Part shown: positions 5,595 to 44,725 of the stretch, in pieces | Numbering within the stretch: the stretch's first letter is position 1 | How the letters are laid out: every line of letters starts with the position of its first letter | NCBI GenBank assembly: GCA_024682255.1 | Contig: GCA_024682255.1_4716.1 | Length of the DNA stretch: 64,000 bases | Source: a phage | Strand: one strand, 5' to 3' | Translations under genes and position numbers: made by a program | Notes under the pieces: model-generated | Database searches by the model: none | What the model was told of the DNA's origin: nothing | What the model saw: the letters and a program-made list of their open reading frames with translations, nothing else

Positions 5595-5615
5595 AACAAA
5601 ATAGCATGAGCATAA

Positions 5616-5647: not shown

Positions 5648-5656
5648 AATATGCTG

Positions 5657-9262: not shown

Positions 9263-9277
9263 AAAACACTCCGTTGA

Positions 9278-9308
9278 CCTAGGTGGAGGTTATTGGCCTC
9301 CACCTAGG
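9278..9308 (-). promoter_or_regulatory. perfect 12-bp stem hairpin immediately upstream of the 1201-aa gene
   Basis: CCTAGGTGGAGG ... CCTCCACCTAGG with 7-nt loop, ending about 15 nt before the start codon at 9262; possible terminator/attenuator or processing site between two co-oriented giant genes. Confidence 0.5.
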
Positions 9309-9343
9309 GTTGAACAACGCGTACGGTTATACGGTACGCACGA

Positions 9344-12576: not shown

Positions 12577-12608
12577 GTTAAATTCCTTTATAGTAAAAAT
12601 AGAAGAGA

Positions 12609-28656: not shown

Positions 28657-28672
28657 TGTAAAGGTAACATAA

Positions 28673-28704
28673 CCCTCTCCCAACCCGTAAGGGAAGGGAG
28701 AGGG
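28673..28704. terminator. bidirectional two-tier hairpin, exact copy of 21505..21536
   Basis: Identical 32-nt ccctctcccaacccgtaagggaagggagaggg between convergent genes ending at 28656 and 28722. Confidence 0.6.
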
Positions 28705-28721
28705 CTTATGCTGTTATGCTG

Positions 28722-29096
28722 TTAATCTTCGTTCCAGATGGCATCTTCCGGTGGAACAATAGGATCTTTCTTCGGCATTGATGGCACTTCATGACGATGC
28801 TTACGGAACTGCCTATCAATAACCTCACGAAGCCGGTACGCATCAACCCATGTTGATTTATTGAACAGCTCCAACGTCACAGTTAGCCGTGTTCTCGACA
28901 TTGAATAGCTTTTCTTTGCAATCAAATTGGGATAATTCAGTTGAGCGAACCACGCACGTATTTGTGCTTCGGTAAAAGCGATGCTGTAATAACTAAGTTT
29001 ACCGTCATTAAAATCGTGCGCGTGGGTGTAGCGTCCAGCGTAACGCCAGACAAGATGCACATTCAGATCGATCCATGGTGGGGTGGTATCAGCCAT
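28722..29096 (-). CDS. hypothetical protein (124 aa)
   Basis: ATG with GAGGG upstream. Confidence 0.55.
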   Translation of the reverse strand: MADTTPPWIDLNVHLVWRYAGRYTHAHDFNDGKLSYYSIAFTEAQIRAWFAQLNYPNLIAKKSYSMSRTRLTVTLELFNKSTWVDAYRLREVIDRQFRKHRHEVPSMPKKDPIVPPEDAIWNED

Positions 29097-29105
29097 GTGT
29101 TACCC

Positions 29106-29675
29106 TCAACGATTCTTCATCACTTTACCTAGGCTTTCGATATTATCCCAAAAGCGATTTTTACTTGGCGCATCACCGACGATAACCGACATCAAATCAC
29201 GACGTTCACGACTGATGATGCCTTGTGATTTCCAGATCACCATCGTCCAGCAAGCTGCCAGAACGAACAGATGGTTAATGCTTGGTTTGGTTTGCGCAAT
29301 GAACGCAAGCCATGCCCAGATACCGGTGTATACTATCGTCACTAAAAAGAGCGAGATTGTTGCAACGACAACAACGAAGTTTTGGACAGCGGGTTGATTC
29401 GCGTTATCATGAATAGCGGTAAGATCAGGAAGGTTACCTTCAACTGAACTCGTTTCATCGATTTCCAATTCTTCGATTTCTTTTCGTGTGTCAGGAGCTA
29501 ATCCAGCATCATCGAGATGCTTTTTTAACCGCTGTATGCTTAATCGTTGACCGACAGGAATGTTGATGTTGTCGTAACTATTAAGCGCATCGACCAGGGA
29601 GCGTCCGTCAACGAGAACCAAGCTCGCGGTACCCATCGTTTGCGGTTTTATTTTGTAAAGGTCTTTTACTTTCAT
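29106..29675 (-). CDS. membrane protein (189 aa, multiple TM segments)
   Basis: ATG with GGAGGT upstream; hydrophobic segments VVVVATISLFLVTIVYTGIWAWLAFI and LFVLAACWTMVIW. Confidence 0.55.
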   Translation of the reverse strand: MKVKDLYKIKPQTMGTASLVLVDGRSLVDALNSYDNINIPVGQRLSIQRLKKHLDDAGLAPDTRKEIEELEIDETSSVEGNLPDLTAIHDNANQPAVQNFVVVVATISLFLVTIVYTGIWAWLAFIAQTKPSINHLFVLAACWTMVIWKSQGIISRERRDLMSVIVGDAPSKNRFWDNIESLGKVMKNR

Positions 29676-29696
29676 GTAGACACCACCTCCAACGTG

Positions 29697-32309
29697 TTAA
29701 GCGTCCGGCGTAAAATCAAAAGGAATGTCCGTACGAATGATATCATAACGTTTTCCGAGGAAATAGAACTCTTCGGGAACCTGGCCTGGAATGATGCTAT
29801 CACCGATGAACTGCGGATACGCCCAGATGTACTGGGTGAGTCCTTCGAACATATCCAGGTTATTTGCGTGGTTGCCCATGATACGTTTCCAGAGTTCGCG
29901 TTTATACGGCGTTTTAACATCGAACCCATAAAGCGGTGCGAGGTCTTCACCAGGAACAAATCCCAGGTAATAGTGGATCTGACTAACTGGGAAACCAAGG
30001 GTATCTCGCGGAATGGTGATCGCTTGCTCAGCCTTGGTGACATGCGTCTCAATAATCCAGTCATAGCACTCTGAATAGAACCGATCGAATTTCTCTGGAT
30101 TATACCACGCTTTGGGAAGATTGAGTTTCTCCGTGAACGCGTTCGACATGATCGTCGGCAAGAACGGAAGAACGCCGGTTTTGATCTGCGTGTATTTCGA
30201 TTTTACCCGGTTAACGAGATTCCAGCAACTGTATCCTAACTGTTCGTTACAAAACTCAACATAGAGATCGTAGTCACCACCGGATAACGGGTTGTTAATA
30301 TCACCGATGTCTGCGGCGTATTTGTTGGGATATCGGTTATTGAAAGCCAGTTTGGTTTGGTAGTCGTAGATACACGGTTTGTTGTTCGCTGTATTGATCC
30401 ACCACCAGGGTTCACCTACTTGTACACAAATGTCCTGGACATGAGGGTAAATGATATCAGCAAACGCGGTTAACACATCCCCTAACCACGTCATCGCCTG
30501 TTGGTTACATGGAGACAACAACCAAGACGGTGGCGTATATCCGGTTGCTGCGATGTTTCCTTCCCAATCCTGCTGCGCCCACTCGAACGGGCATGCGGTA
30601 CTCATCAATTCGTAACTTAAACTGATGGTGACGGAGAAATGGTGTTTTGCAGCATATGCGGCGAAAGCTTCATGCCACGCGATACAGGCCGGATTTAATA
30701 CATCCGTGGTGTTCACCAGTAACTTACCCGCACTTGGCGTCCAGACAGTATCGTAGAAATGCGACATCCCAACATAATGCACTAATTCATCTTGATACCC
30801 CGCATAAACCAGGTTCTCAAATACGCGCTCCGGCGTGATGTTGTAATGGTCATCATAAGCGGTTATCGCACGAAGTTCGTGTGGCGTACAGTGGTGGCGA
30901 CTAACCGTCATTTCCTGATACACCCCATCGATAGGAAGAATCTCGATGGTTAAACCGAGGTCGATTGGCGTTTCCAGATAGGTCGTTTCAGTCGCATCTT
31001 CCTTATAATGTCGAGAACTCATGCTGAACATCAACGACGTTACCGATTCGAGTTCGATGGGTTCGTCAGCATAGAACCCCGCCATTGCGTCATTGAAATC
31101 GATCGTCACGATTGCGCTTCTACCGTCTTCAGAGACATCGGTCGCATATCGGGTTAATGAGATATACTGACGGCTATCGTCTTTGTGTACGACGGTTAAA
31201 ACCGGCGGGTGTTCGGTATCTGCAAAGTTACGCTGATCGCCAGTAAACGTGACCTTCGCTTTAAAGATCAAACCGAGTAACGATGTCATGGGATCATACG
31301 CAATACATCCGTGATCCAGCGTATCCGTTGTCCGCCATTCTATCCCGACCAACCCGTTAGCGGTATGACATCGCATATACGCATTAAGTGTCATGTCCTC
31401 ACTGACAACCGCGAAGTTCTCTGTTGACTGACCGTTGATAATCCAATACATCGGTTGCCAGAGGTTACGCGTACCTTTTGCGTAGCGGTAGGTTGGTGCG
31501 CCTTTGGGGTTGCCATTATTAAGATGGAATACGGCAGTACCTTGATAATGGTCGTTCGTATTAATCGGAACACTGTAAGCATCGCCGAGGTCCGTACGTT
31601 CCACCTTCGTGACTGTCGCGTTTTCAAATAACCCACGTAGCGCGGGTAAACCGATATCTTCCGGCGCGTTTTCTCGACGAATCGCATCCGCGATGCGGTG
31701 GGCTAAGGCGGGGTAAATGACCTCACCCTGTTGTAGGTTTGCAAGACCTACAAAGCGATCGGGAGCGATACCAGCAATCAATAACTCGACATCACCCTTC
31801 GTTCTATCGTCGTTAAGATATTTCAGTCCGGTAAGGTCAAGATGCTGAATAAGCGACAACAGGTTGTATTTACGGTTTTCAACAGTTAGTACAAGATCGC
31901 CCGCCCAAACCAAACTTCCCTCATCCGCTGTTACTTTAACGGATTGTCGGCCCGTGGTAGACGTTGTTGTCGTTTTATTTAATTGTCCTTGTAGGAAGTC
32001 GGTTGCGAGGTCAAAGGCGATACCGTAACGGTCAGCGACCGCTTGCATGATTTCACGTAACTGGGTATCTTCTTCAATGATAATCTTGACAGGTATTCCC
32101 AAGAACGCTTTAGCGAGGTCTCGTTTAACCAACGAGACGAATACGGATTTGTAGTATCGGCTTCCATCTTTCCCTTTAAAAAGAATGGAGGTTGTTTCGG
32201 GTGCCGATAGAACACGTGCAAATACAACATCGTCGGAAGTAAGAGAAAGTCCGTTTTTCTCGTTGACCAATCTTAGTATTTCATTTTGCGCGGTTTCATG
32301 TAACTTCAT
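29697..32309 (-). CDS. tailspike / tail-fibre-like protein (870 aa) with N-terminal anchor domain
   Basis: N-terminal region (RDLAKAFLGIPVKIIIEE ... DRYGIAFDLATDF) is paralogous to the short proteins at 38096..38623 and 42439..43269; long Trp/Tyr-rich C-terminal domain. Confidence 0.55.
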   Translation of the reverse strand: MKLHETAQNEILRLVNEKNGLSLTSDDVVFARVLSAPETTSILFKGKDGSRYYKSVFVSLVKRDLAKAFLGIPVKIIIEEDTQLREIMQAVADRYGIAFDLATDFLQGQLNKTTTTSTTGRQSVKVTADEGSLVWAGDLVLTVENRKYNLLSLIQHLDLTGLKYLNDDRTKGDVELLIAGIAPDRFVGLANLQQGEVIYPALAHRIADAIRRENAPEDIGLPALRGLFENATVTKVERTDLGDAYSVPINTNDHYQGTAVFHLNNGNPKGAPTYRYAKGTRNLWQPMYWIINGQSTENFAVVSEDMTLNAYMRCHTANGLVGIEWRTTDTLDHGCIAYDPMTSLLGLIFKAKVTFTGDQRNFADTEHPPVLTVVHKDDSRQYISLTRYATDVSEDGRSAIVTIDFNDAMAGFYADEPIELESVTSLMFSMSSRHYKEDATETTYLETPIDLGLTIEILPIDGVYQEMTVSRHHCTPHELRAITAYDDHYNITPERVFENLVYAGYQDELVHYVGMSHFYDTVWTPSAGKLLVNTTDVLNPACIAWHEAFAAYAAKHHFSVTISLSYELMSTACPFEWAQQDWEGNIAATGYTPPSWLLSPCNQQAMTWLGDVLTAFADIIYPHVQDICVQVGEPWWWINTANNKPCIYDYQTKLAFNNRYPNKYAADIGDINNPLSGGDYDLYVEFCNEQLGYSCWNLVNRVKSKYTQIKTGVLPFLPTIMSNAFTEKLNLPKAWYNPEKFDRFYSECYDWIIETHVTKAEQAITIPRDTLGFPVSQIHYYLGFVPGEDLAPLYGFDVKTPYKRELWKRIMGNHANNLDMFEGLTQYIWAYPQFIGDSIIPGQVPEEFYFLGKRYDIIRTDIPFDFTPDA

Positions 32310-32331
32310 TAAAAACCTCAGCCCTTTAGAA

Positions 32332-32973
32332 TTAGATGTACTGCTTACCGCCCACGAAGGAAGTTAACCAGTTCCCGCTGACGAGTTGTGATACCCAGCC
32401 TGGAACGGCTCTACCATTCTGGCTCATGATGTTACCACACCAACCAGGGAATCCGGGACGGATGTAATAGAAAGTTAAATTGTAGAGATGACAGTTCCAT
32501 ACCGCAACGTTATGTTTACCAGAAACCGCTTTAAAGACAAACGCGACAGGTAACGGAGACGATAACAATTCGGTCACAGGGACAGCTGACCAGTTCGCAT
32601 TCGCGTTCCATGGTTGCCAGGTATGACTACGCGAGTCGCAATATACGTTACCGTTGCTACCGCGTCCGCCCGCGTTCCACCATAGCGACGGACTCATGTT
32701 TTTAAGTGAGGTAAATTGCTGTGGTGGTATATTCGGAATGATAACAGGGTTGGTACCTTGTCCGTGTTTCTTTTCTTTTGTGTTCACATAGCCGTTTATC
32801 GATTCGAGGTATTTCGTACCAGGATAATTGTTCTGGACTTGTGTCGCAATATCACGAACGTCGAACGTCCAGCAGATCATGGTGTTATAGTAAGCGTCGG
32901 TGTTATCGTGCCATGAGTTACCATCTTGTAAACGTGCGCCGCTATTCGGTGTTTTATCTGTACTTATAGCCAT
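32332..32973 (-). CDS. Trp-rich hypothetical protein (213 aa), receptor-binding module
   Basis: ATG with AGGA upstream; located between the lipoprotein gene and the 870-aa tailspike-like gene. Confidence 0.55.
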   Translation of the reverse strand: MAISTDKTPNSGARLQDGNSWHDNTDAYYNTMICWTFDVRDIATQVQNNYPGTKYLESINGYVNTKEKKHGQGTNPVIIPNIPPQQFTSLKNMSPSLWWNAGGRGSNGNVYCDSRSHTWQPWNANANWSAVPVTELLSSPLPVAFVFKAVSGKHNVAVWNCHLYNLTFYYIRPGFPGWCGNIMSQNGRAVPGWVSQLVSGNWLTSFVGGKQYI

Positions 32974-33112
32974 GGTCTTGTCCTATACGTTGGTGGTTGA
33001 AGTGGCGGATATCGGATGCATGCTGGACGTGAACCCTATAGTTCGCGCTATCGCCATTTTCTACCTCGTTTCTATTCTCAAAAAGGAAATTTCATACGAT
33101 GACGCCATAGCA

Positions 33113-33142
33113 GCTCCTCCTTCCCTGACGGGTTGGAGGAGC
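33113..33142 (-). terminator. two-tier hairpin of the same family in opposite orientation
   Basis: GCTCCTCC-ttccctgacgggtt-GGAGGAGC; loop is the reverse complement form of the aaccc-N4-gggaa loop seen at 5616, 21505 and 28673. Confidence 0.5.
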
Positions 33143-33150
33143 ATACTTAA

Positions 33151-33657
33151 TTACTTACTGATAACCTCAACGGAGTTGGGATCAGCGATCAATGCACGGT
33201 CGGTAGAACAATTGAAGAAGACCATCCCAACACCATCGCCGTTCGAGTTCAGGGTCGAACTTGCGTAAGACAATGTTGGTTTGTTCATGCGGTAGAAGCG
33301 TTCGCTGGTTGCGGTATTGAACCCCAGGTCAACGTAGTCTTTCACCGTGGTATACAACTGGGTGGACTCGAAAACGGTTACCGGAGAGTCAACGGTAAAC
33401 TGACTGCCTTCATCCACAACCAGAACTTTATCGTTCCAGATTTCAGTGGTTGAGAACTTCGGTTTCCAATGTTCGAATTCCTGGGTTGCACCCCAGCAAG
33501 AATACACAGCGAGATTGCTGTTCTTCTCAACAGGTTTTAACCCCACCAGTTGCGTCAGGTCTTTATCCAGGTTCGGTAAACCTTCCAGCGTAGCACACCC
33601 ACCCAGAGAAAGCACCATCAACATACCAAGAACGATCGCGCAAAGTTTCTTTGTCAT
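33151..33657 (-). CDS. lipoprotein (168 aa), candidate receptor-masking / superinfection-exclusion factor
   Basis: Signal peptide with lipobox (MTKKLCAIVLGMLMVLSLGGC); GAGGA upstream; directly downstream of the fibre and Tfa genes. Confidence 0.6.
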   Translation of the reverse strand: MTKKLCAIVLGMLMVLSLGGCATLEGLPNLDKDLTQLVGLKPVEKNSNLAVYSCWGATQEFEHWKPKFSTTEIWNDKVLVVDEGSQFTVDSPVTVFESTQLYTTVKDYVDLGFNTATSERFYRMNKPTLSYASSTLNSNGDGVGMVFFNCSTDRALIADPNSVEVISK

Positions 33658-33698
33658 CGGATTTCCTCATGTGTTAACGGGAGTGATTTCCATAGTAA

Positions 33699-34115
33699 TT
33701 ACACAGTTGTAGGAAATTCCGGCCAATCGATATTTGGTGCAGCATCGGTATCGACAGCAGTCACCGCATCAGTGTAATCCAAAACAGCATTAAGTCGGGT
33801 CGTTTCTTCCGGAGTCAGTTTTCGCCCAGCCCGTAATTTTAACTGAATAAGATCGATGGAAGCCAGCGCAGAATCAATCAAAGATTGTTTTATCTGTTCT
33901 GCTTCGGCGACGAGATCTTCGTGTTGCCGCTCGGGTTCCGGAGGTGCGGTAAACTCACCATTTGAGTATGACCAACCTATTCCAGGTGACACAGCCTCCT
34001 TATCGTCGATATGAACCAACTGCTGATTGTCGAATATATCGAGCTCTGCTTCACCATCGTAAACAATCGTGTTTACTACCACTCCATTTTCAATAACAGC
34101 GTATAATGTACTCAT
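33699..34115 (-). CDS. tfa: tail fibre assembly protein (Tfa-like chaperone)
   Basis: C-terminal LNAVLDYTDAVTAVDTDAAPNIDWPEFP matches the Tfa signature (...VDTSxAPxIxWP); ATG overlaps TAA of the fibre gene (TAATG). Confidence 0.7.
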   Translation of the reverse strand: MSTLYAVIENGVVVNTIVYDGEAELDIFDNQQLVHIDDKEAVSPGIGWSYSNGEFTAPPEPERQHEDLVAEAEQIKQSLIDSALASIDLIQLKLRAGRKLTPEETTRLNAVLDYTDAVTAVDTDAAPNIDWPEFPTTV

Positions 34116-37100
34116 TACATAAACTCCTCGATGATGCAAATCCCATTAGCACCGCGCCCACCAGGCTTAGCGGTTCCTGAGTAAGAGTTATCGTAAGCAG
34201 CACCACCACCCGAACCAGGCGCGAGGCCGTTATGGGCGGTGCCGACACCAGCACGGCCGCCACCGCCCCAATATGACGCACCCCCACATCCACCGGCGGC
34301 AAGAGTACCGGCTTGTCCATCGCTACCGTCTCCGCCCGGAATGCGTATATCCCCGGTAGTAGGTACGCCCCCATAGCCACCGCCAGTGTTTGTGACAGTT
34401 GTTTTTCCTGCGCCTTGCCCGCCGGGAGCAGTTAGCAGGGATGCAAATTTACTATCTCCACCCCCGTTCCCATTCGTCGCCCCAGAGCCACCGGAACCAC
34501 CAGAACCAATTATAACAGAATAACTAGCAGCTGCTACCGTTATAACCGAAATTACTGTTCCGCCAGCTCCTCCTCCAGCGCCAAAAAACGTTTCGCTGTT
34601 GGAATAAGCCTGACAACCGCCACCGCCACCGCCACCACCGGTTATCGTTACTCTAATCCGTTTTGTTCCTTGTGTTGGGGTGTACGTCCCTGACGATGTG
34701 AAAACACGCATATTCAGTAAACGCCCGACATATCCACTAGAATCGGCTAAACCAAGATCTTTAGCTGCTAACGTGATATTAGCCGTACCGTCGAAAGGTT
34801 TACCGTTAATCGTGCGCGCAGTTTGCAGCTTCGTCGCCGTTGCTGCGTTCCCTGATGTATTCTGGTTCCCCGCGGCGTTAACACCTGGTAGATTGATGTT
34901 CGCACTACCGTCGAACGCGACACCACCGATCGTCCTTGCTGTTTGCAGTTTTGTCGCCGTGGCGGCATTACCGGTCGTGTCTTGGTTACCGGTGGTGTTT
35001 ACCCCAGGCAGGTTGATATTTGCCGTTCCGTTAAATGAGACACCACCAATCGTCCTTGCCGTTTGCAACCTCGTTGCGGATGCCGCATTCCCCGTGGTGT
35101 TTTGGTTACCTGTTGCATTCACACCTGGGATACTATCCTTAGATGTGTAGATCTGTGCCCATTCCGACCAGTTCGCATCGGTTGAATCACGACGTGAACG
35201 TAAATAAGCTGGAGCGTGTGCACCTGAGGTACCTGACCACCCAATGAGGATTTCGCCTTCGCCGACCGATGAAGCACCTTTAAGATGAACAATGTTGCCG
35301 TAGGCTGTAGGGTATCCGTTATTGTACGCTTCATACATCTGGATACCCGTGTTGCTGCCCTGGGTCGCATTAGCTAAAGCGGTGACCCGTCCTTTGGAAG
35401 CGAGCACGTTAATGCTAAAGCTAATATCGGTTGTACCGTCAAAGGCGACCCCGTTAATCTTCCGTGCTGTTTGGAGTTTCGTGGCAGTAGCCGCATTACC
35501 AGAGGTACTCTGATTACCTGCTTTGTTCACACCCGGTAAATCAATGTTGGCTGTTCCATCAAAGGACACGCCCCCTATGGTTCTCGCTGTCTGGAGTTTT
35601 GTTGCTGAACCAGCGTTTCCGGAAGTGCTTTGATTACCTGCCGCGTTGACACCTGGTAGGTTAATGCTAGCAGAGCCATCAAAAGAAACTCCGCCGATCG
35701 TGATCGGTGTTTTCAATTTCGTGGCTGTCGCGGCGTTACCCGTCGTATTCTGATTGCCAGCCGCATTAACGCCTGGTAATGCGATATCGGTCGTACCATC
35801 GAACGCAACACCACCGATTTTACGGGCGGTCTGTAGCTTGGTCGCTGTAGCCGCGTTGCCGCTGGTATTTTGCGTGCCCGCTTCATTTACGCCTGGTAAA
35901 TCAATGTTCGCAGTACCATCAAAAGAAACACCCCCGATGGTTCTCGCGGTCTGCAACTTCGTTGCACTTCCTGCGTTTCCGCTGGTGCTTTGATTTCCCG
36001 CTGCATTAACACCTGGTAGACTGATGCTGGCTGAACCATCGAAACTCACACCACCGATCGTAACAGCGGTTTTCAATTTCGTGGCGGTTGCTGCGTTACC
36101 GGTTGTATTTTGGTTGCCTGTCGCATTCACGCCAGGTAATGCAATATCCGCTGTTCCGTCAAAGGCAACGCCACCGATTTTACGTGCAGTTTGTAGCTTG
36201 GTTGCACTAGCAGCGTTACCGCTGGTATTCTGGGTGCCTGCTTTGTTAACACCGGGGAGATCGATGTTAGCAGAACCATCGAAGCTGACGCCACCTATCG
36301 TTCTTGCGGTAGCGAGTTTAGCTGCTGTGGCTGCATTATTACCCACTTTCAGCCAATCATCCCATGGACCATCCTGGCCGTTCCATGATGCCGTTAAACT
36401 ACGTACGTAAATATTGCCGGTACGTACAGTGTAACGTTGCGTTCCACCGAATTGCCCGGTTGGGAGCACTTCAATGTAACCTGCGGCGTTTGCTTCAGGG
36501 AAATTGTGGGCGATGTCCGCGTTCGTTGTTACTGGTTTAGACCAAATACCAACAGACGCTTCGACTGGGCCGAAGGTATTCAGATTTGCGTCTATCGCCA
36601 TAGCGCCATTAAATTTCAGGTATGTCTCTGGCGATAATCCGATCGTTTTAGCAAACGCAGCTTTATCTACGATATCACTACCGTTATTCCCTGCTTGCAA
36701 CGCCGTCTTAGCTGCCTTTATGGTTTCGGTCAATCCAAGATATTGTAAGATCGCATCAACGCTTCCTTTGTTTAGCAGATTCAGACCTGTTGACGTTACG
36801 TTAGTTAGTCCGATTTGGTTCCGTCCAGTAAAATAAGGGAGTTTATTCGCTTCTGTTGTTAGGTTAGACCACGCAGTCAACAACGCGTTCAAAGGCTGTT
36901 TACCCGCCAACGCATTGGTTACTGTCGTTGCGAAATTAGGATCGTTCCCTAAAGCTTGAGCCAGCTCATTAAGCGTATTTAGCGCTTCTGGAGACGAGTC
37001 GATCAGCGATGCGATAGCGCGCATCACAAATTCCGTGTTGGCAATCTGTCGACTGCTATCGTTCTCTGCAGCCGTAGGCGCTGCCGGGATACCGGTGAAC

Positions 37101-38089
37101 ACGGGGCTATTAAGATCTGCCTTGAGCGCGATGAGACGTTTAAGTGCGTCGACATCGACTTTCAGGTTTTCCCACCCGATGAGAGAACCACCACTGCTGG
37201 CATGATAACGGTTATACCAGAAGTCACCGTTAATGCCTAAAAAGAATATTCCCTTCTCTTCGTTTTGTGGGCCAGAACTGTTCCGTGACGAGCTGATGTA
37301 ATTGATTTCAATAAGACCGGTAAACGTCACTCCTGGAATTATTTTATTGTCTCCAGCTGACTGTGATACCTGGTAAATCCCCGGGGTTGCGGCTTTAACC
37401 CATGTTAAGAATTCTGTTACTCCAGCGGTGCCGCTAAAATTCTTAACGTCGGTAAGTATTGCCCCATAACCGAACATACCGGGTAGAGCCACTCGTCCGC
37501 TGGTACGGTCACGAATATCTGTTACAACAACGGGCAATTGTTTACGAACGGCATTAACCGCTTTAGGCGTGGCCGATTTTGTCTCGTCGTCGCTATCGGT
37601 TGCATTACTTAGAATAGTTAAACCGCGTGTAGCAGTAGTTGCATCAGGAAGAAATGCGTTATCCAACACCTTAAGCTGTACTGCACTCGTATTACTAACA
37701 ACGACATGCACTTGACAGTTAAGAACGCTGGTTGCGCCTTCGGCAGGCGTAGGCTTATATCTTTCTGGTGCACTGCAGACGGCAATCAGAACACCTTGAT
37801 CATCATACAGACCGATCTCACGTACCCAGAACCCACCTTGACCAGCAGGAATAATACCCTCAACGATAATCCTGGTTGTGCTATCACCATCCGCATGGAT
37901 ATTAGAAACTTCCCCACGATAAACTTCGTGGACAAGCGCTGTTTGGCTGGCGGACGGGGTTGGGATCGAGCCGTTACCATCACCAACGGCAAAGTGTGTG
38001 ATTTTTAGTTTCTCACCGTCGGGAAGTAACGCAGCGGTGATACGTTCTGCTCCTTTATCGGTAACTACCGTTATATATGCTGTACTCAT
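34115..38089 (-). CDS. long tail fibre protein (1324 aa): Stf-like N-terminus, 40-aa tandem repeats, Gly-rich C-terminus
   Basis: N-terminus (AVGDGNG, LVHEVYRGE, GGFWVREIGLYDDQG, APERYKP) resembles lambda-type side tail fibres; about 11 tandem 40-aa repeats (TIGGVSFDGSANIDLPGVN...GNAATATKLQTAR); C-terminal poly-Gly region. Confidence 0.8.
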   Translation of the reverse strand: MSTAYITVVTDKGAERITAALLPDGEKLKITHFAVGDGNGSIPTPSASQTALVHEVYRGEVSNIHADGDSTTRIIVEGIIPAGQGGFWVREIGLYDDQGVLIAVCSAPERYKPTPAEGATSVLNCQVHVVVSNTSAVQLKVLDNAFLPDATTATRGLTILSNATDSDDETKSATPKAVNAVRKQLPVVVTDIRDRTSGRVALPGMFGYGAILTDVKNFSGTAGVTEFLTWVKAATPGIYQVSQSAGDNKIIPGVTFTGLIEINYISSSRNSSGPQNEEKGIFFLGINGDFWYNRYHASSGGSLIGWENLKVDVDALKRLIALKADLNSPVFTGIPAAPTAAENDSSRQIANTEFVMRAIASLIDSSPEALNTLNELAQALGNDPNFATTVTNALAGKQPLNALLTAWSNLTTEANKLPYFTGRNQIGLTNVTSTGLNLLNKGSVDAILQYLGLTETIKAAKTALQAGNNGSDIVDKAAFAKTIGLSPETYLKFNGAMAIDANLNTFGPVEASVGIWSKPVTTNADIAHNFPEANAAGYIEVLPTGQFGGTQRYTVRTGNIYVRSLTASWNGQDGPWDDWLKVGNNAATAAKLATARTIGGVSFDGSANIDLPGVNKAGTQNTSGNAASATKLQTARKIGGVAFDGTADIALPGVNATGNQNTTGNAATATKLKTAVTIGGVSFDGSASISLPGVNAAGNQSTSGNAGSATKLQTARTIGGVSFDGTANIDLPGVNEAGTQNTSGNAATATKLQTARKIGGVAFDGTTDIALPGVNAAGNQNTTGNAATATKLKTPITIGGVSFDGSASINLPGVNAAGNQSTSGNAGSATKLQTARTIGGVSFDGTANIDLPGVNKAGNQSTSGNAATATKLQTARKINGVAFDGTTDISFSINVLASKGRVTALANATQGSNTGIQMYEAYNNGYPTAYGNIVHLKGASSVGEGEILIGWSGTSGAHAPAYLRSRRDSTDANWSEWAQIYTSKDSIPGVNATGNQNTTGNAASATRLQTARTIGGVSFNGTANINLPGVNTTGNQDTTGNAATATKLQTARTIGGVAFDGSANINLPGVNAAGNQNTSGNAATATKLQTARTINGKPFDGTANITLAAKDLGLADSSGYVGRLLNMRVFTSSGTYTPTQGTKRIRVTITGGGGGGGGCQAYSNSETFFGAGGGAGGTVISVITVAAASYSVIIGSGGSGGSGATNGNGGGDSKFASLLTAPGGQGAGKTTVTNTGGGYGGVPTTGDIRIPGGDGSDGQAGTLAAGGCGGASYWGGGGRAGVGTAHNGLAPGSGGGAAYDNSYSGTAKPGGRGANGICIIEEFM
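34777..36334 (-). repeat. tandem ~120-bp coding repeats inside the tail fibre gene (two blocks)
   Basis: Protein residues ~586-895 and ~985-1105 are 40-aa repeats with alternating 80-aa super-period; antisense ORFs on the track (34680..35150, 35754..35993, 36024..36410) mirror the repeat. Confidence 0.7.
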
Positions 38090-38095
38090 GGTGTT

Positions 38096-38623
38096 TTATC
38101 CTGGATAAATAGTGATGATATCACCAATGACGGTTGTGGCACCGGCGTAAAGATGAGCCGGAGATACATCGTGTTGGTTTGTCACAGTAAGATCCAATCG
38201 ACCACGCCAAACCATGGAGGTATTCGCGATGGGGATAGAAATCTTTTTGGATATATCGTCACGAAAATCAATAACAGTGGCAAGGGTAACCGCATCAAAA
38301 TCAACGTCGGGGTCAAAGACGAACCCGTATCGATCTGAAATAGCTCGAATAATCGCATGTATAGTTGTTGTCTCAACAGACTCTAAAACGATTTTTACCG
38401 GTATGCCTAAAAATGCCTTCGCGATATCGCGTCGGGCGTAAACGATAAAGCATTCACCGCACCACTTTGTTCCTTCATTTGCTGTGACGATCACTTTTGC
38501 CCTGTTAGCACCAGAACTCCCATCCAAGGTTAATGTAAGATCGGAGCTGCTGAACACGCTACCGTTACGTTGGTTTATCAACGTAATCAGTTCGTCTTTC
38601 CATGGCGGGTAAAGTGAACGCAT
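38096..38623 (-). CDS. fibre anchor-domain protein (~175 aa), paralog of the 870-aa protein N-terminus
   Basis: RRDIAKAFLGIPVKIVLES ... DRYGFVFDPDVDFD; internal ATG with GGAGG upstream chosen (track start is TTG). Confidence 0.55.
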   Translation of the reverse strand: MRSLYPPWKDELITLINQRNGSVFSSSDLTLTLDGSSGANRAKVIVTANEGTKWCGECFIVYARRDIAKAFLGIPVKIVLESVETTTIHAIIRAISDRYGFVFDPDVDFDAVTLATVIDFRDDISKKISIPIANTSMVWRGRLDLTVTNQHDVSPAHLYAGATTVIGDIITIYPG

Positions 38624-38736
38624 AAGCGCACCCTCCTCCAACAATCAAATTAAAATATATAACTCCTCGAAACCAGAGTGCGATTCGAGGTAAGCGTAAA
38701 CAGTCCAGACGACCGCATAAAATTCCGCGCATATTG

Positions 38737-38768
38737 CCCCTCTATCTCGACAAAGCGAGATAGAGGGG
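38737..38768 (-). terminator. perfect 13-bp stem hairpin after the 1198-aa gene
   Basis: CCCCTCTATCTCG-acaaag-CGAGATAGAGGGG between 38829 and 38623. Confidence 0.5.
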
Positions 38769-38828
38769 AGGATAATACGATTATGCTGCCGCACTCCAAA
38801 GTTCATGGGGCGGTAACCGCCCCATCGG

Positions 38829-41800
38829 TTAAATGGTTGGTTTTACATCACGTAATAAGGCAATATAATAGCCTAATCCTCGGAGGATCTCCCCACTCCA
38901 GAAACCAAAATACATTCCGTCTCTGCCGAGATTAGCGCTATCTGGTGCAGGACTCCACCCACCATTCATTACGTCGTCAACAGTGTAATGGTTGATGTAG
39001 TTCTCAACGATTTCGTTATAAGCATTAACCGCAACAGAATAGCCTTTATCGTTGGGATGTCCGTACAACATTGCTAACGACGCACCCGCCAACCATAATC
39101 CCGCCATGTGACCAGTAAAGTCATTAGGGATAAAAGCAGGGGGTTTATCCATCGGAAAATCCGTAGGGGATTGATAAGCGTTTTCCTGTTGATACGTAAA
39201 CAAGAAATCGATCCAATGACTGATGTAAGTGGTTAATTTCTCAGGGACAGCCAAACCATGATCAAGCAGCCCAGCATAAAGCCTCACCGCTGAGAAGAAA
39301 GCCCTCGGCTGATAACCGGACCATGCCGTCTGATCGCCGAAGTGGTACATCGTAAAATCGTTAACTTTTGATCCGCTTGGCGCATCCCAACGATCCCACA
39401 CGTACGCACTTGCCCCTGGCCCTAAAACCCCGAATTTCTGATAATACCACTGTTGTGAGTCATACCAGAAATTCACAACGTTCTGAATCATGAGGTCACG
39501 TCGTTCAGTCGGTACTTCCATATCCAGGAAGACCCATGGATGTTGGTAGCCGGGATAAGGCTGACCACGCCAACTGTCGAACGTCGGTGCGTTAGGGATA
39601 TAGTTGTTCGAGAACGGAATAATACCCGGAGTATAAGGCAACGGATCGAGACGTTGGTTAACGATCGTGCAATCACCAACACGTAATGTTCCCTCTGCCT
39701 CAAAGGTTGCTTTTAACGTAAACAACATGGTATATCCGTCATCCGTGGTGTATGTTGACGGTGGATTGTTGATGGCGTAAAGCTTAAATACCCCTTCAGC
39801 GATATCGCTGTCGTCAGGCAAGAACAGAATTTCAGTTGAGCCATCGCCCCACACAGGTGCAGAAGGTCTAGGGTCAGTATCAGTGTGGTTCGGTTGATAC
39901 CCTGAGAGCGTCCATCCGTTCGTCGAAAGCGTCAGCGTATTTCTTGCTGTGGTAGCCGGTAGCATCTGCCACCATCGCCAACCATTTGCATCTTCTACAC
40001 GAACGTTGTAGTCAATCGACGCGAAATAACTGACCTGCCTTACGATCTGTTTTGCGGTTGGATTGAATTCAAATTGCCCGCCTGCTGCAGTAAGCTGTGC
40101 TTTTAGGAACAACCCATCCCAGGAATCTTCCACTGCTTCGCTGAATTCTGTTGTGATGGCGACATCATCTTTCCAGCCGACTTTATCAGCCGATACCAAC
40201 ACAGAACCTGTAACAGCATCACCGGTTGGTGTTGATGCTTCATCAACCGCATCAGCAGGAATCAACGAGCCTATTTTGAAATCCCATCCTTTCGGTTCAG
40301 CGCTGGAAGGTAATACCAGTTTGTACGTTTTGGCGTTCGCTTCGGTTTTGTCCAAAGAAAGCGATAATGAGATCTCAACCGGAATTGCGACACCGGCTGT
40401 ATCTTTACCTCCGCAGGTTACACGAAGAATTGAATCCCGATTTACGCGGAACGGAATGGCCTGCTGCTCAAGGTAAATTTGTGCTGAAGATGCTTGAATC
40501 ACGATCCAGCCATCGGTATCACGCGTGATTGTAAATGGTGCTTTCGATGGGTATGTATACGTGTAAGCGATACCGTCGGTGTCGTAACGATCGGTTCCTT
40601 TTACCTGACGGAAGAACTTATCGTTGGCGTCGATACGGGTATATTCTTCAATCGTAAACAACGATGCCTTGTACGCTTTCTGATAGCGCTCCTGCTGCGT
40701 TAAACGATATAAGGTGTAGGCTGCTTCACAAAACCACTGTTCGGCGTCTGATGCGTTTCCCATGTAGTCTCTGGTGACCGGCACCTGGATCGGTCGGTTA
40801 TGCTGACATTCGTTTGTTTTGATGAGGTATCCACCATATTCAACAGGAACGCGGGGTGCCCATGCAACCAAGTAAGAACCGCTGACGGATTTATCTTTGA
40901 GTACGATGGTACCTACTTCATCGTCGGTACACGCTTCAAGATCGTCTCCGTCAGCACTTACGTAACGTTTTGTGCGTAACGCAACTTTCTCGATAGGGAA
41001 CACCGTACCCTTTGTATCCCAGTCAATTGTCCCATCATCATTGGTTTTGAACACATCCGCGTTCAAATTCTGCCAGCCGAGTTTACCCTCATAGACCTGA
41101 ACAACAAGATCCATGTATTCCCCGAACGTGGGCGCGCCATGTGTTATTTTTCCGATACCGTTGGTGAATGTAACCGCTGTGTCATGGAAACCGCCATGTG
41201 TTGGGTAATCGTCTTTTGCAAGAGGATAATGGGCCAACACAGGTTGTTTACCATTAACAATCCAGTTAGCGATCCAGCGTGCTGGTGTATCCGGTGGTTC
41301 AAGGCCTGCATAGAACGCATTTATATACGCATCGAACGATGCCTCCGCTAATGTGAGATAATGCGCTTTAAGCTTGGTATCATCCGTTGTATGACTGAAT
41401 ATACCCGCACCCAGAATTAACAACGACTGTCCTTCTGTTGTTGCGTCACCGTCCGGTTGTGCTTCTTGTCGTGTTGCTGCAATGAAATGACGGTTGTTTA
41501 CCATGACTCCGCTTTCATTTAACACGTAATGATCGGTTTCTGGATCGGTAAACGTTCCTGTGTTTCGGGTTAAGAATCTTGCATGACCATAACCAACGAA
41601 ATTAACCGGCGACGCCGTAAGCACCCATTTACCGATAAGTTGAGCGACGTCATTATAACGCTCCGATGCGGTGATTTGTTTCACGTACCAATCTTTACGG
41701 TTAAATGTCCAGAGCAAGAAGTAATAGGTCGTATTGATTTCCATTACCGGAAACGTTGGTGTTAACGGCTCCAGCGTTAAGTAGTTGCTCCAATCAATCT

Positions 41801-42425
41801 GTCCACCAACAACCGATGAGGTAATCTCTAATAACTGACACCATTCATAACGGTTCGGTACACTACTGGACGTTGTTGGTAAAGGTAACTTGTATACGCC
41901 AGTACGATTCAGATCGAACGCTTTTCTAGCCGATCCTAAATCAACATAAATACTCGATGATGCGCTTGCATCAGATGCCTCCAAAGCACCTAGCGTTGAC
42001 CGATACATTGAGATGAACAACGTATCTTTCCAGTAAGGGTTATCCTCGGTTGGTTCTAAAGCGATTTGTGCGGAGATGCTGTTCCATGTCCCTAACTGGT
42101 ATGCTGCATTTAAAGATTCTTCCGTGAAATAACTTTCCGCAATCGCCAGATGGAACTGTTCATTCAATAACGCGAGTGCACTGCGACCGGTAACATCCTC
42201 ATTACCGGTTTCTTTTTTCATGATCGCGCCGAACGGAAACAGTGTCGCGAATGACCGTTTTGGTTTATTAACCGTAATCGTCCCCGTGTAGTTTCCAACA
42301 CCGTCAAGTTTTTGACTATCGCCAACAGCAGTGACTGCGATACCATCAGCCGGGATATCTGTTTTATTTAGTACATTGAGTTGGTCAACCAGATCCTGCT
42401 TATCGTCGGGTAAGAATGTCGCCAT
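38829..42425 (-). CDS. giant tailspike-like protein (1198 aa), possible polysaccharide-degrading domain
   Basis: ATG with AAGGTGGAG upstream; aromatic-rich C-terminal region; any enzymatic assignment is inference only. Confidence 0.55.
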   Translation of the reverse strand: MATFLPDDKQDLVDQLNVLNKTDIPADGIAVTAVGDSQKLDGVGNYTGTITVNKPKRSFATLFPFGAIMKKETGNEDVTGRSALALLNEQFHLAIAESYFTEESLNAAYQLGTWNSISAQIALEPTEDNPYWKDTLFISMYRSTLGALEASDASASSSIYVDLGSARKAFDLNRTGVYKLPLPTTSSSVPNRYEWCQLLEITSSVVGGQIDWSNYLTLEPLTPTFPVMEINTTYYFLLWTFNRKDWYVKQITASERYNDVAQLIGKWVLTASPVNFVGYGHARFLTRNTGTFTDPETDHYVLNESGVMVNNRHFIAATRQEAQPDGDATTEGQSLLILGAGIFSHTTDDTKLKAHYLTLAEASFDAYINAFYAGLEPPDTPARWIANWIVNGKQPVLAHYPLAKDDYPTHGGFHDTAVTFTNGIGKITHGAPTFGEYMDLVVQVYEGKLGWQNLNADVFKTNDDGTIDWDTKGTVFPIEKVALRTKRYVSADGDDLEACTDDEVGTIVLKDKSVSGSYLVAWAPRVPVEYGGYLIKTNECQHNRPIQVPVTRDYMGNASDAEQWFCEAAYTLYRLTQQERYQKAYKASLFTIEEYTRIDANDKFFRQVKGTDRYDTDGIAYTYTYPSKAPFTITRDTDGWIVIQASSAQIYLEQQAIPFRVNRDSILRVTCGGKDTAGVAIPVEISLSLSLDKTEANAKTYKLVLPSSAEPKGWDFKIGSLIPADAVDEASTPTGDAVTGSVLVSADKVGWKDDVAITTEFSEAVEDSWDGLFLKAQLTAAGGQFEFNPTAKQIVRQVSYFASIDYNVRVEDANGWRWWQMLPATTARNTLTLSTNGWTLSGYQPNHTDTDPRPSAPVWGDGSTEILFLPDDSDIAEGVFKLYAINNPPSTYTTDDGYTMLFTLKATFEAEGTLRVGDCTIVNQRLDPLPYTPGIIPFSNNYIPNAPTFDSWRGQPYPGYQHPWVFLDMEVPTERRDLMIQNVVNFWYDSQQWYYQKFGVLGPGASAYVWDRWDAPSGSKVNDFTMYHFGDQTAWSGYQPRAFFSAVRLYAGLLDHGLAVPEKLTTYISHWIDFLFTYQQENAYQSPTDFPMDKPPAFIPNDFTGHMAGLWLAGASLAMLYGHPNDKGYSVAVNAYNEIVENYINHYTVDDVMNGGWSPAPDSANLGRDGMYFGFWSGEILRGLGYYIALLRDVKPTI

Positions 42426-42438
42426 TATTTACTCCACC

Positions 42439-43269
42439 TTAATCGTAACTAAAATAAAGTTTGCTGCTGACGCCGCTATCGGAATGAGGTTTTAATACCA
42501 GAACAGAACTTCCGAACGACGGAAGTATTGGAACATTTAAATCGTTTGCGTCGGCAACTTTTCCATTATAAACGACACTGGCTGTTGTGATGAGTTCCCA
42601 AGCCGAGGCATAACTCATTGAAATCAGCGATGAGGCTAAACGGAATGCGTTGTATCCTTCTGGAGTATCTCCAACTGACATCGAACGTATCGCATCTTGC
42701 GGCGGTAAATTTAGCTTGATGCCGTAGGTACTGAATGTGTGGAAATCCCCTTGTTTACTATCTTCTGGATAGTACGAGGTTAGTGGTTCTCGCACCGTAA
42801 ACAGTTCGCTAATATCGGTACTTACCGCTTTTCGTGCGAGGAATTGAAACGTACCGTACCACGATGCTGATGCATCAGAACGAACGGGAACAGATATGGT
42901 TTTCTCGCCGCTTTCAAATTTAACCTGTGATGCTAACGCTGAAGAATCAAAGATCGTTAAATCGATCTTCAGCCCATACTTCTTAAACAGCTGCGTTAAG
43001 CAATCTGCTATCGTCGTCTTATCAGCAACGACAATAAAAGGTTGGTGTTTGATAAAGAGCTTATTAATGTCACGACGTTGAAGATAAACCTGTACGGGGT
43101 CTTCGATATAGTAAGTCGATTGTGGTGTGGGGACTATAGAAAGGCGTAACCGACCTGATGCACCATACCAGGCTGGCGTTAACGTAATGTCTGACAGGGA
43201 TAACGGATGCTGGAGATAGGTGTTTATTTTAGATAACACTTCCTCCTGCCATGATGCTTCAGGATACAT
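42439..43269 (-). CDS. fibre anchor-domain protein (276 aa), paralog of the 870-aa protein N-terminus
   Basis: RRDINKLFIKHQPFIVVADKTTIADCLTQLFKKYGLKIDLTIFD aligns with the anchor region of the other two paralogs; ATG with GAGGT upstream. Confidence 0.55.
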   Translation of the reverse strand: MYPEASWQEEVLSKINTYLQHPLSLSDITLTPAWYGASGRLRLSIVPTPQSTYYIEDPVQVYLQRRDINKLFIKHQPFIVVADKTTIADCLTQLFKKYGLKIDLTIFDSSALASQVKFESGEKTISVPVRSDASASWYGTFQFLARKAVSTDISELFTVREPLTSYYPEDSKQGDFHTFSTYGIKLNLPPQDAIRSMSVGDTPEGYNAFRLASSLISMSYASAWELITTASVVYNGKVADANDLNVPILPSFGSSVLVLKPHSDSGVSSKLYFSYD

Positions 43270-43353
43270 GCTGACCTCATAGATGATCGTTGATAGGAAA
43301 GAGACCTAATTCATACCATGGGAACCTTAAAAAAAAAAAGAAAAATAGGAAAA

Positions 43354-43383
43354 CGGTGTTCATCCCTAAAAGGATGAACACCG
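43354..43383 (-). terminator. rho-independent terminator (12-bp perfect stem + T-run)
   Basis: CGGTGTTCATCC-ctaaaa-GGATGAACACCG followed on minus strand by a long T-run (plus strand shows aaaaaaaaaagaaaaa). Confidence 0.75.
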
Positions 43384-43403
43384 CGTACCGTTATATCGAA
43401 CGA

Positions 43404-43979
43404 TTAGTAAGGAATCAGATCGTTAAGCTTTTCTTCTTCAATGACAAAGAAGTTGTTCTGGTCGTCTAAATCTGTTAACAGGACTTGCCCAACAGTAAAG
43501 CAAGTGCCGCCTTTCTTAGGCACCCATACAGGCTCGTTCGTTACCTTATCGGGATACCATTTGAAACGATTGGTATCTAAGAAGAACGCTGCTTTGTTCG
43601 CTTTATCAGTTGAACGATAGCTAACTAGCGCAGGCCACTCAATCCAGGTGTTTGTGCACGGCACATGTAAAGGATACCATGCGCGCCAGCGTTTGCCTGG
43701 CCTGTTAGGATCAACCCAATACTCGGCAGTCAATACAGCATCTTTATAATGTTTCTGCATTAACATTTCGAGCACAAGCTCATTGCCTTTTGATGCGTCT
43801 AACGTCACTTCCGTCATATAAAGCGATTTAGGTAATTCAGACTGTTTTGCGGGTGTTACAACACCGGTAACCAACGGTCTGCTCGGTTTACGTTTCTGTT
43901 CTTTCCGACGTGTGTAAAAGAATAGTCCGACAGATACGGCAACAAGTATAATAAACAACACTACCTTAATCCAATTCAT
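43404..43979 (-). CDS. membrane-anchored protein (191 aa, N-terminal TM)
   Basis: MNWIKVVLFIILVAVSVGLFFYTRRK; ATG overlaps upstream stop (ATGA). Confidence 0.55.
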   Translation of the reverse strand: MNWIKVVLFIILVAVSVGLFFYTRRKEQKRKPSRPLVTGVVTPAKQSELPKSLYMTEVTLDASKGNELVLEMLMQKHYKDAVLTAEYWVDPNRPGKRWRAWYPLHVPCTNTWIEWPALVSYRSTDKANKAAFFLDTNRFKWYPDKVTNEPVWVPKKGGTCFTVGQVLLTDLDDQNNFFVIEEEKLNDLIPY

Positions 43980-44725
43980 TCGTCAATATCTCCTTCTACA
44001 AACAGAGTCAATTTGATTTCAGGGTCATAGAACATAGTAATCACATCATCCTGCTCTACTGAACGCTGTGCTGTCCATATTAACTGTTCATCCCGAATAT
44101 CAAATTTATGTCGTTCGTCACTCACCACAGCTTCCGCATCAACGTAATGGTAAACCTCACCGAGAGGATTCTCAATCCAACCGCGTACCATCAAACGTTC
44201 TTTTTGTTTACGTGTAAAGAAGCGATAAGGATCTTCGCACGTGCGCCACACGTCCCCGTTCTCGTTAACCAGCTCATCATAAACTTTAGAGAGTTCGTCA
44301 GGTACCGGAATCAAAATGTTATCTTGATAGTTAGACCAGAAACGACGTACGTCTTGGATCAACTCATCGTCTGGGAGTTTAGTCGCTATGTTACTATAAT
44401 CGATTTCAACAGTATCGATATCAGGACGGGTAAACGGAAGAGCGTCTAGATTTCCCACCATGACCTCGATACTATCATGATGAACACGAATCCATCCATC
44501 GAACCATCTATACCCATCAGCTTGATATAACGTTGTATGATAAGTGACGACGTTAATGTCTTCGAACGATTCTAATAAGGCTTTAGCGGCTAAAAGCGGC
44601 GAAAAGTTCTTTGATTGTCCTGGTTTACGTATTTCTTCTTTGATGAACAATTTACCAAGCGCCGGGTGTTCGATAACAAAACCACAGGAGAGCATGATGC
44701 TTCCTTGATAACGTGCTTCTTGCAT
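43976..44725 (-). CDS. hypothetical protein (~249 aa)
   Basis: Internal ATG (MQEARYQ...) has AAGGA 8 nt upstream; track start at 44764 is also an ATG but lacks an SD. Confidence 0.5.
   Translation of the reverse strand: MQEARYQGSIMLSCGFVIEHPALGKLFIKEEIRKPGQSKNFSPLLAAKALLESFEDINVVTYHTTLYQADGYRWFDGWIRVHHDSIEVMVGNLDALPFTRPDIDTVEIDYSNIATKLPDDELIQDVRRFWSNYQDNILIPVPDELSKVYDELVNENGDVWRTCEDPYRFFTRKQKERLMVRGWIENPLGEVYHYVDAEAVVSDERHKFDIRDEQLIWTAQRSVEQDDVITMFYDPEIKLTLFVEGDIDE

Follow-up and report, generated by a model that had tools for sequence, protein, structure and literature searches.

How does a nucleus-forming jumbo phage mount several receptor-binding proteins (RBPs) on one baseplate, and how are these proteins exchanged? 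The question is raised by a locus at positions 29,697 to 43,269 of a 64,000-nucleotide (nt) stretch of phage DNA (NCBI GenBank assembly GCA_024682255.1, contig GCA_024682255.1_4716.1; the whole stretch is hereafter called the window). Host recognition by nucleus-forming jumbo phages is poorly understood, and there is interest in these phages for therapy since they evade many bacterial defences. A sequence-only reading of the window had proposed that proteins of 870, 175 and 276 amino acids (aa) share an N-terminal anchor of about 150 aa, and that at least three RBPs, among them a 1324-aa fibre and a 1198-aa tailspike-like protein, are attached through exchangeable adaptors.

Across positions 29000-44000, the window aligns with Escherichia phage vB_EcoM_Goslar over the full 15 kb at 93.8% DNA identity, with a gene order colinear with Goslar gp84-gp95 and proteins that are 90-100% identical overall. 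By this comparison, the locus is the set of accessory receptor-binding genes of a Goslar-like nucleus-forming jumbo phage (Chimalliviridae; Goslarvirus), a close relative of Goslar and a different isolate. The 870-, 175-, 1198- and 276-aa proteins are direct orthologues of Goslar gp86, gp91, gp92 and gp93, with the same gene order and lengths, and we use the Goslar names below.

The core finding is already known. An April 2026 preprint lists gp22, gp23, gp31, gp33, gp34, gp86, gp91, gp92, gp93 and gp161 as the DUF7941 proteins of Goslar (bioRxiv 10.64898/2026.04.21.720040), and the orthologues in the window are 95-98% identical to those published; most of what follows confirms the Goslar work for one more isolate. 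The pairing of gp93 with gp92, the variation of the locus in relatives and the chimeric paralogues are not addressed in the preprint. New here are this pairing, the recombination junctions, natural variants that lack the fibre or gp92, and gp86 as the most constant head.

The shared N-terminal domain and a fourth member

The proposed similarity holds up in formal alignment. BLASTP matches gp91 to gp86 with E=2e-23 (32% identity over 142 aa), gp93 to gp91 with E=2e-12 and gp93 to gp86 with E=0.003, and all three proteins pass the gathering score of the Pfam family DUF7941/PF25613 (27 bits), scoring 149.6 bits (gp86), 58.0 bits (gp91, residues 7-150) and 38.3 bits (gp93). The proposed length of about 150 aa fits gp91, which consists of the DUF7941 N-domain and a short tail, but not the other two: gp86 (residues 2-277) and gp93 (where the match reaches the C-terminus) have about 276 aa in common, that is, the full DUF7941 composed of N-domain, linker and C-domain.

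The AlphaFold2 model of gp93 (mean predicted local distance difference test, pLDDT, of 82.9) shows a globular N-domain at residues 1-157 (pLDDT >90), a disordered stretch at residues 160-182 (<50) and an ordered C-domain at residues 183-276, the same architecture as that of Goslar gp22 (bioRxiv 10.64898/2026.04.21.720040). A fold search with this model returned a single structural match, the baseplate protein gp127 of phage phiKZ (PDB 9XQD), which is 17-19% identical and has the same fold. At the sequence level, a family profile gives a full-length match to PHIKZ127 (E 3.8e-24).

All three proposed members are thus real, but the count was incomplete: gp92 is a fourth DUF7941 member, with a divergent N-domain that had been missed. 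We built a hidden Markov model (HMM) from 132 N-domains of family representatives, collected in a search of 1.84 billion proteins and including no gp92 orthologue, and ran it against all 477 six-frame open reading frames of the window. It gave exactly four hits at E<=1, the fourth being residues 4-141 of gp92 (25.7 bits, E=2.1e-7). In the alignment, the gp92 N-terminus is colinear with the domain, placing KRSFATLF over RRDIAKAF and matching the conserved Trp. A 48%-identical gp92 orthologue (P0037) has the clearer motif KRDFAKLF and scores 46.1 bits (E 2.1e-15 in a nine-sequence test set), and in two jumbo-phage proteins (P0040 and P0041) a gp92-type body follows a canonical DUF7941 that scores above the Pfam cut-off. 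The AlphaFold2 model of the gp92 N-terminus has the same order of helices (H) and strands (E) as the gp93 model, H-E-E-E-E-H-H-E-E, plus one extra short helix.

Less sensitive comparisons gave less. An HMM of the shared domain built from three sequences found nothing in the window beyond the three members already known, and hhalign of the single gp92 N-terminus against a seq­uence profile of seven members is only suggestive (E 0.032, probability 1.6%). Word-indexed homologue searches with gp91 and with the gp92 N-terminus yielded close Goslar-like relatives only, which is why the alignment of the gp92 N-domain is shallow and the confidence of its model moderate. The sequence-only reading had treated gp93 as the split-off anchor of an anchor-less 1198-aa spike; this part has to be given up, since gp92 is self-anchored through its own N-domain.

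Across 308 DUF7941 family representatives, the domain nearly always starts the protein (residues 1-20), and protein lengths are about 160-195, 270-300 or 380-2581 aa. The commonest architectures are N-domain-only (160-195 aa) and full DUF7941-only (270-300 aa), architectures that the short DUF7941-only proteins share with the high-copy Goslar proteins gp22 and gp23 (bioRxiv 10.64898/2026.04.21.720040). The C-terminal partners found across the family include DUF285, the GP38 adhesin, Laminin_G_3, LRR_5 and a beta-propeller, and this diversity is the signature of a conserved anchor with exchangeable heads. All four DUF7941 genes of the locus are under purifying selection, with ratios of nonsynonymous to synonymous substitution (dN/dS) of 0.06-0.25.

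A distant 233-kb jumbo-phage contig (L010) carries, at 4446-13340, five consecutive DUF7941 genes encoding 515, 160, 153, 1072 and 1010 aa, among them a gp92-type body and a beta-propeller head. Tandem mixes of short and long DUF7941 genes are therefore general in the family.

Two predicted recognition heads

Behind its DUF7941, gp86 carries PF23844 NCTSP_N (residues 284-442, 41.8 bits) and PF23845 TIM-barrel_NCTSP (residues 476-837, 284.4 bits). Searched against the PDB, this body matches two proteins of coliphage N4, gp64 (9lc0, E 2.5e-29) and gp65, the non-contractile tail sheath protein (E 1.4e-7); E. coli is the host of both phages. The N4 gp64-gp65 heterodimer forms a receptor-binding sheath in which gp65 binds NfrA and the NGR glycan (PMC13434306). 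The setting differs: in N4, a podovirus, the two proteins wrap the tail tube as a six-fold sheath, whereas in this contractile-tailed chimallivirus the gp86 module is carried by a DUF7941 anchor. N4 gp65 is also far larger, with 1382 aa in ten domains (D1-D10), most of which are absent from gp86. We considered whether gp86 could be a full N4-type sheath protein and rejected this, as only two domains match and the N-terminus is DUF7941.

The gp92 body is modelled with high confidence (pLDDT mostly 80-98). Foldseek matches it to CBM11 (carbohydrate-binding module) beta-sandwiches and to the (alpha/alpha)6 barrels of glycoside hydrolase families GH116, GH105, GH88 and GH48, and by its model the body is made of CBM-like beta-sandwiches and a glycosidase-like (alpha/alpha)6 barrel. 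The description of gp92 as tailspike-like does not survive this result: no beta-helix enzyme is among the top fold hits, and a classical tailspike depolymerase of the P22 gp9 kind, with its right-handed parallel beta-helix, was rejected. The gp86 body, a TIM barrel, does not have a beta-helix catalytic domain either. PDB sequence searches with the gp92 body, as a single sequence or as a 34-sequence profile, gave nothing significant. The body is a module of about 920-1000 aa that is widespread as a tail protein in unrelated phages and prophages.

The preprint likewise reports carbohydrate-binding, glycoside-hydrolase or leucine-rich-repeat domains in gp86, gp92 and gp161, and describes gp86 and gp92 as bearing carbohydrate-binding and glycoside-hydrolase domains behind an N-terminal DUF7941 (bioRxiv 10.64898/2026.04.21.720040). 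Both heads are predicted to be enzymatically active.

Variation of the locus among relatives

The proposal that the locus enables cassette exchange is borne out by comparison with related Goslar-like loci (L002-L005 and L007-L009, several of which are metagenomic contigs), where fibre tips have been swapped, genes gained or lost and paralogues fused into chimeras. A scan of IMG/VR viral contigs for the RRDIAKAF pattern found three Goslar-like loci only.

L007 shares the gene set of the window but lacks Tfa, and its 1174-aa fibre differs in the distal part. Fibre tips fall into three types: Gly_rich_2 with Tfa in the window, Peptidase_S74 in two relatives (L002 and L005), and another in L007. 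L002, whose fibre has the Peptidase_S74 self-chaperone and which lacks Tfa, also carries an additional gp87 paralogue and, placed between gp92 and gp91, an additional gene that encodes a 584-aa DUF7941-DUF285 protein. In L002-L004, this 584-aa gene sits at the position of a spacer in the window (38624-38828).

Losses affect gp93, gp92 and the fibre. A single deletion of about 3 kb in L003/L004 spans the stretch between gp93 residue 215 and gp92 residue 928; L005 lacks both genes; in L008, gp92 is cut to residues 742-1198; and in L009, gp92 is broken into pieces of 194 and 994 aa and gp93 is shortened to 172 aa. In the metagenomic genomes L008 (3871-4843) and L009 (7571-8525), the 4-kb fibre gene is precisely deleted, joining window position 38076 to 34115 and keeping Tfa, gp88, gp87 and gp86. 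The junction lies in about 14 nt common to the 5' ends of the fibre and Tfa genes, and the orphan Tfa gene is intact.

Fusions occur as well. The "gp91" genes of L005, L008 and L009 (176 aa) are chimeras of the N part of the 584-aa gene and the C part of gp91; in the L005 chimera (P0033), residues 1-68 match the 584-aa protein at 89% identity, and the remainder matches a gp91 variant (P0004) at 94-95%. At the DNA level, the switch lies at about nt 195-222, in the codons for RRDIA(K/N)AF(L/T)GIP. Homologous recombination was dropped as the claimed mechanism on account of the few nucleotides shared there, and we limit the claim to a crossover at the most conserved motif.

The gp86 gene was found in every related locus that extends to its position. 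Together with the losses above, this is evidence, drawn from gene content, that gp86 is the most constant head and that the fibre and gp92 are dispensable in nature. Most candidate determinants of host range in Goslar-like phages lie in this locus. The natural points at which its cassettes break and re-join would guide host-range engineering.

A probable gp93-gp92 pair

A more distant phage (L011/L012) carries a 279-aa gp93 orthologue (40% identity) 13 nt upstream of a 1375-aa gp92 orthologue (48-58% identity, N-domain included). Homologues of gp85 and gp84 follow directly, and gp91, the fibre and gp86 are absent. Among the Goslar-like loci, L003/L004, L005 and L008 show joint deletion or absence of gp93 and gp92.

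All four DUF7941 proteins of this locus were detected as their Goslar orthologues in purified virions, so that absence from virions does not count against a role in attachment. By mass spectrometry, gp92 is present at 4.9, gp93 at 4.8, gp86 at 4.5 and gp91 at 1.2 copies per virion, and the gp90 fibre at 43, these label-free numbers being rough (about +/-50%) and the preparation also having held non-virion assemblies such as chimallin and PhuZ (bioRxiv 10.64898/2026.04.21.720040, Table S4).

Because gp93 and gp92 are kept adjacent in L011/L012, are jointly lost elsewhere and are equally abundant in virions, we infer that they form a functional pair, conserved and equimolar. Within it, the linker and C-domain of gp93 most likely plug into the N-domain of gp92.

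A predicted chain of anchors at the baseplate rim

In the preprint, AlphaFold 3 dimers predict head-to-tail docking, in which the linker and C-domain of one protomer fit onto the N-domain of the next; purified gp22 forms filaments by negative-stain electron microscopy; and a "fibre cloud" of DUF7941 filaments anchored at the peripheral (outer) baseplate is proposed (bioRxiv 10.64898/2026.04.21.720040). In phiKZ, the gp139 dimer band that crosses each star lobe ends at gp127, in the outer baseplate (PMC13250141). phiKZ gp127, found there with gp126, is DUF7941-only; enzyme fusions are not reported in the phiKZ literature cited here, and the fibres of phiKZ itself use a different anchor, gp131-like N-domains.

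Our best explanation of the locus, to which we assign a probability of about 70%, combines these observations. Following the published model, the DUF7941 N-domain would act as a socket, and linker and C-domain as a plug that docks on the N-domain of the next protomer; we infer that the four proteins of the locus dock in this way. The chains would be rooted at the outer baseplate rim, where the homologue gp127 caps the gp139 band in phiKZ. The module would tether two recognition heads, namely gp86, with its N4 gp64/gp65-like carbohydrate-binding domain and TIM barrel, and gp92. The most likely role of gp93 would be that of a dedicated connector bringing gp92 into a chain or onto the baseplate, with about six copies of each per virion, while gp91, having the N-domain only, would be a minor chain element or cap. 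The 1324-aa fibre with Tfa would be a separate, conventional RBP with an N-domain of its own, Phage_tail_fib. Finally, because several adjacent genes start with the same domain, deletions and fusions between neighbours would add, remove and re-join heads, giving natural variation in receptor binding. In principle this resembles the branched multi-RBP adaptor systems of CBA120 (TSP1-4), G7C (gp63.1/gp66), K1-5/SP6 and Klebsiella phage PhiK64-1, in which several enzymatic or binding heads are carried on one baseplate through conserved N-terminal modules and are swapped between phages.

Several points weigh against this explanation, in addition to the roughness of the copy numbers. For the four proteins of the locus, the case for docking consists of the AlphaFold models of the preprint and of gp22, and in the Goslar baseplate map the DUF7941 densities are unresolved (bioRxiv 10.64898/2026.04.21.720040). 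The gp92 N-domain scores 16.5 bits with Pfam DUF7941 (E 0.006), below the cut-off, and its model is of moderate confidence (pLDDT about 60-83), with a long low-confidence segment after it. The enzymatic activity of the two heads is predicted from fold. The comparison loci are in part metagenomic and could be defective genomes. Lastly, no stretch of identity between the present-day 584-aa and gp91 genes at the crossover is longer than 8 nucleotides, and the fusion is therefore due to short-homology recombination or older than the current divergence.

A more specific proposal, for which we would give rather less than even odds, is that the DUF7941 N-domain has two roles: as a connector it would seat a gp93-gp92 two-component glycosidase and gp86, about six copies of each, at fixed sites of the rim and not in a diffuse cloud, and it would also serve as a handle for recombination, so that some lineages get by on gp86 alone, without the long fibre.

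In the strongest rival of our explanation, a literal reading of the model in the preprint, the four proteins are sparse, random decorations of a micron-scale, high-copy cloud made mainly of gp22 and gp23, with neither fixed sites nor specific pairings. The estimate of more than 2500 DUF7941 protomers per Goslar virion, the filaments formed by purified gp22 and the predicted hetero-oligomer network joining the paralogues all fit such a cloud. We nevertheless regard it as unlikely: gp86, gp92, gp93 and gp85 all have 4.5-4.9 copies, close to a single copy at each position of the six-fold baseplate, an indication of defined sites and not of random incorporation, and gp93 and gp92 are inherited and lost as a unit.

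The fibre and the 175-aa protein

The claim of a lambda Stf-like fibre with its own Tfa chaperone is confirmed. The fibre carries PF12571 Phage_tail_fib (141.2 bits), PF03406 Phage_fiber_2 (34.5 bits) and PF21722 Gly_rich_2 (44.5 bits), is placed in PHROGs tail-fibre families and is annotated in Goslar as 'similar to gpS [P1]'; Tfa carries PF02413 Caudo_TAP (72.3 bits), belongs to PHROG 188 and agrees with the annotation of Goslar gp89, its length being 146 aa from a TTG at 34139 or 138 aa from the ATG at 34115. The Phage_tail_fib N-domain, the fibre repeats and a Caudo_TAP gene that overlaps the fibre stop are features of lambda Stf-Tfa, P1 S-U and P2 H-G. Unlike lambda Stf or P1 S, this fibre belongs to a chimallivirus baseplate and has an unusually long run of 40-aa repeats, which Tandem Repeats Finder resolves as 120-nt units within a 360-nt super-repeat (35529-36280). 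Strong divergence from the Goslar fibre is confined to two blocks of about 100 aa (56-57% identity), both among the repeats, and this suggests that repeats were shuffled or changed register.

The original idea of three RBPs on exchangeable adaptors is only partly retained. An anchor function and one plausible connector-head pair, gp93 with gp92, remain of it, but the locus has four DUF7941-headed proteins and an independent fibre, and the adaptor role of gp91 is not supported. In its strict form, with each short paralogue the dedicated exchangeable adaptor of the adjacent RBP (gp93 for gp92, gp91 for the fibre), we find it improbable. Gene arrangement speaks for it: the spacing is tight, with 13 nt from the end of the gp93 gene to gp92 and 6 nt from the end of the gp91 gene to the fibre, in L002-L005 and L007 the gp91 gene immediately precedes the fibre gene although the tips differ, and the equimolar gp93-gp92 pair is kept alone in L011/L012. 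However, gp92 has a DUF7941 N-domain of its own, and the case for gp91 as fibre adaptor is weak because there is a gap of about 35-fold between gp91 (~1.2) and the fibre (~43 copies per virion), because gp91 is retained under purifying selection in the fibre-deleted L008 and L009, and because the fibre has a canonical attachment domain of its own.

That the short DUF7941-only genes are non-functional stubs, debris of head deletion, is very improbable and was rejected on dN/dS and length conservation: deletions do make stubs and chimeras (the 584N::gp91C fusions, gp93 fragments of 172 and 215 aa, gp92 remnants) and gp91 is scarcely detected in Goslar virions (2 peptides, about 1 copy; bioRxiv 10.64898/2026.04.21.720040), but dN/dS is 0.15-0.25 for gp91 and 0.12-0.19 for gp93, gp91 homologues form 35 clusters down to 59% identity of which the 27 full-length ones are fixed at 175-176 aa with a conserved C-terminal tail, gp93 at 40% identity still lies beside gp92 in a distant phage, and the short forms are the commonest architectures of the family, the same as those of the high-copy gp22 and gp23.

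Layout of the locus and neighbouring genes

All open reading frames listed by the sequence-only reading are present at their coordinates on the minus strand, and transcription runs from gp93 through gp92, gp91, the fibre, Tfa, gp88 and gp87 to gp86 (Table 1). The hairpin upstream of gp93 is likely to be the upstream boundary of the transcription unit. A scan for sigma-70 promoters gave 13 sites where 23 were expected, and no promoter conclusion was drawn; because chimalliviruses use their own RNA polymerases, such a scan is uninformative. The spacer between gp92 and gp91 has three strong hairpins, one with a perfect 13-bp stem (minimum free energy -76.6 kcal/mol, z=-3.6), and could be a terminator, a processing site or the scar of a lost 584-aa DUF7941-DUF285 gene.

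Table 1. Features of the receptor-binding locus, in transcription order, with protein identity to the Goslar orthologue
Feature	Coordinates	Strand	Identity to Goslar	Details
Terminator-like hairpin	43353..43384	-		14-pair stem then T-rich tail; separates the first DUF7941 gene from the gp94 homologue; strongest such site in 28500-44500
gp93, 276-aa DUF7941-only protein	42439..43269	-	95.3%	N-domain 42799-43269; disordered linker 42724-42798; C-domain 42442-42723
gp92, 1198-aa protein	38829..42425	-	96.3%	Divergent DUF7941 N-domain 42003-42416; low-confidence linker, ~residues 144-270; body 38832-41618
Structured intergenic spacer, 205 nt	38624..38828	-		Between gp92 and gp91 genes; three hairpins, then GGAGGAGGG, ribosome-binding site of the gp91 gene
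gp91, 175-aa protein	38096..38623	-	97.7%	DUF7941 N-domain and short conserved tail
gp90, 1324-aa tail fibre, P1 S / lambda Stf type	34115..38089	-	90.2%	Phage_tail_fib N-domain, 40-aa repeats, glycine-rich C-terminal tip
gp89, Tfa chaperone, Caudo_TAP	33699..34115	-	90.6%	Start overlaps fibre stop codon by 1 nt
gp88, 168-aa predicted lipoprotein	33151..33657	-	98.8%	Place in the receptor-binding apparatus uncertain
gp87, 213-aa protein	32332..32973	-	97.2%	Directly upstream of the gp86 gene
gp86, 870-aa protein	29697..32309	-	98.0%	Full DUF7941 31479-32309; NCTSP_N 30984-31460; N4 gp64/gp65-like TIM barrel 29799-30884
gp85 homologue, 189 aa	29106-29675	-		Directly downstream of the gp86 gene

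Three neighbours of the DUF7941 genes deserve mention. gp88 has a lipoprotein signal peptide with the lipobox LGGC (MTKKLCAIVLGMLMVLSLGG|C; LSGC in relatives) and belongs to PHROG 9559, of unknown function. A virion assembled in the cytoplasm should lack a secreted lipoprotein, and for this reason gp88 is possibly a lipoprotein of the host surface and not part of the virion. By analogy with T5 Llp or Cor, it may mask the receptor or exclude superinfection, and may co-purify on membrane vesicles; it is among the most abundant proteins of the Goslar virion preparation, with about 740 copies per virion (bioRxiv 10.64898/2026.04.21.720040, Table S4).

gp87 has no match in Pfam or PHROGs, and its gene always lies just upstream of the gp86 gene. 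A 255-aa paralogue (37-39% identical) stands beside it in L002/L003 (L002 14986-15753), and the two have in common the C-terminal motif RPGFPGW.GNIMSQNG.AVPGW.SQLV.GNWLTSFVGGKQY.

The gp85 homologue has long hydrophobic segments and is probably a transmembrane protein. With 4.6 copies per Goslar virion it is equimolar with gp86, gp92 and gp93 (bioRxiv 10.64898/2026.04.21.720040, Table S4), and in L011 its homologue comes directly after the gp92-like gene; gp85 may be a further part of the same apparatus.

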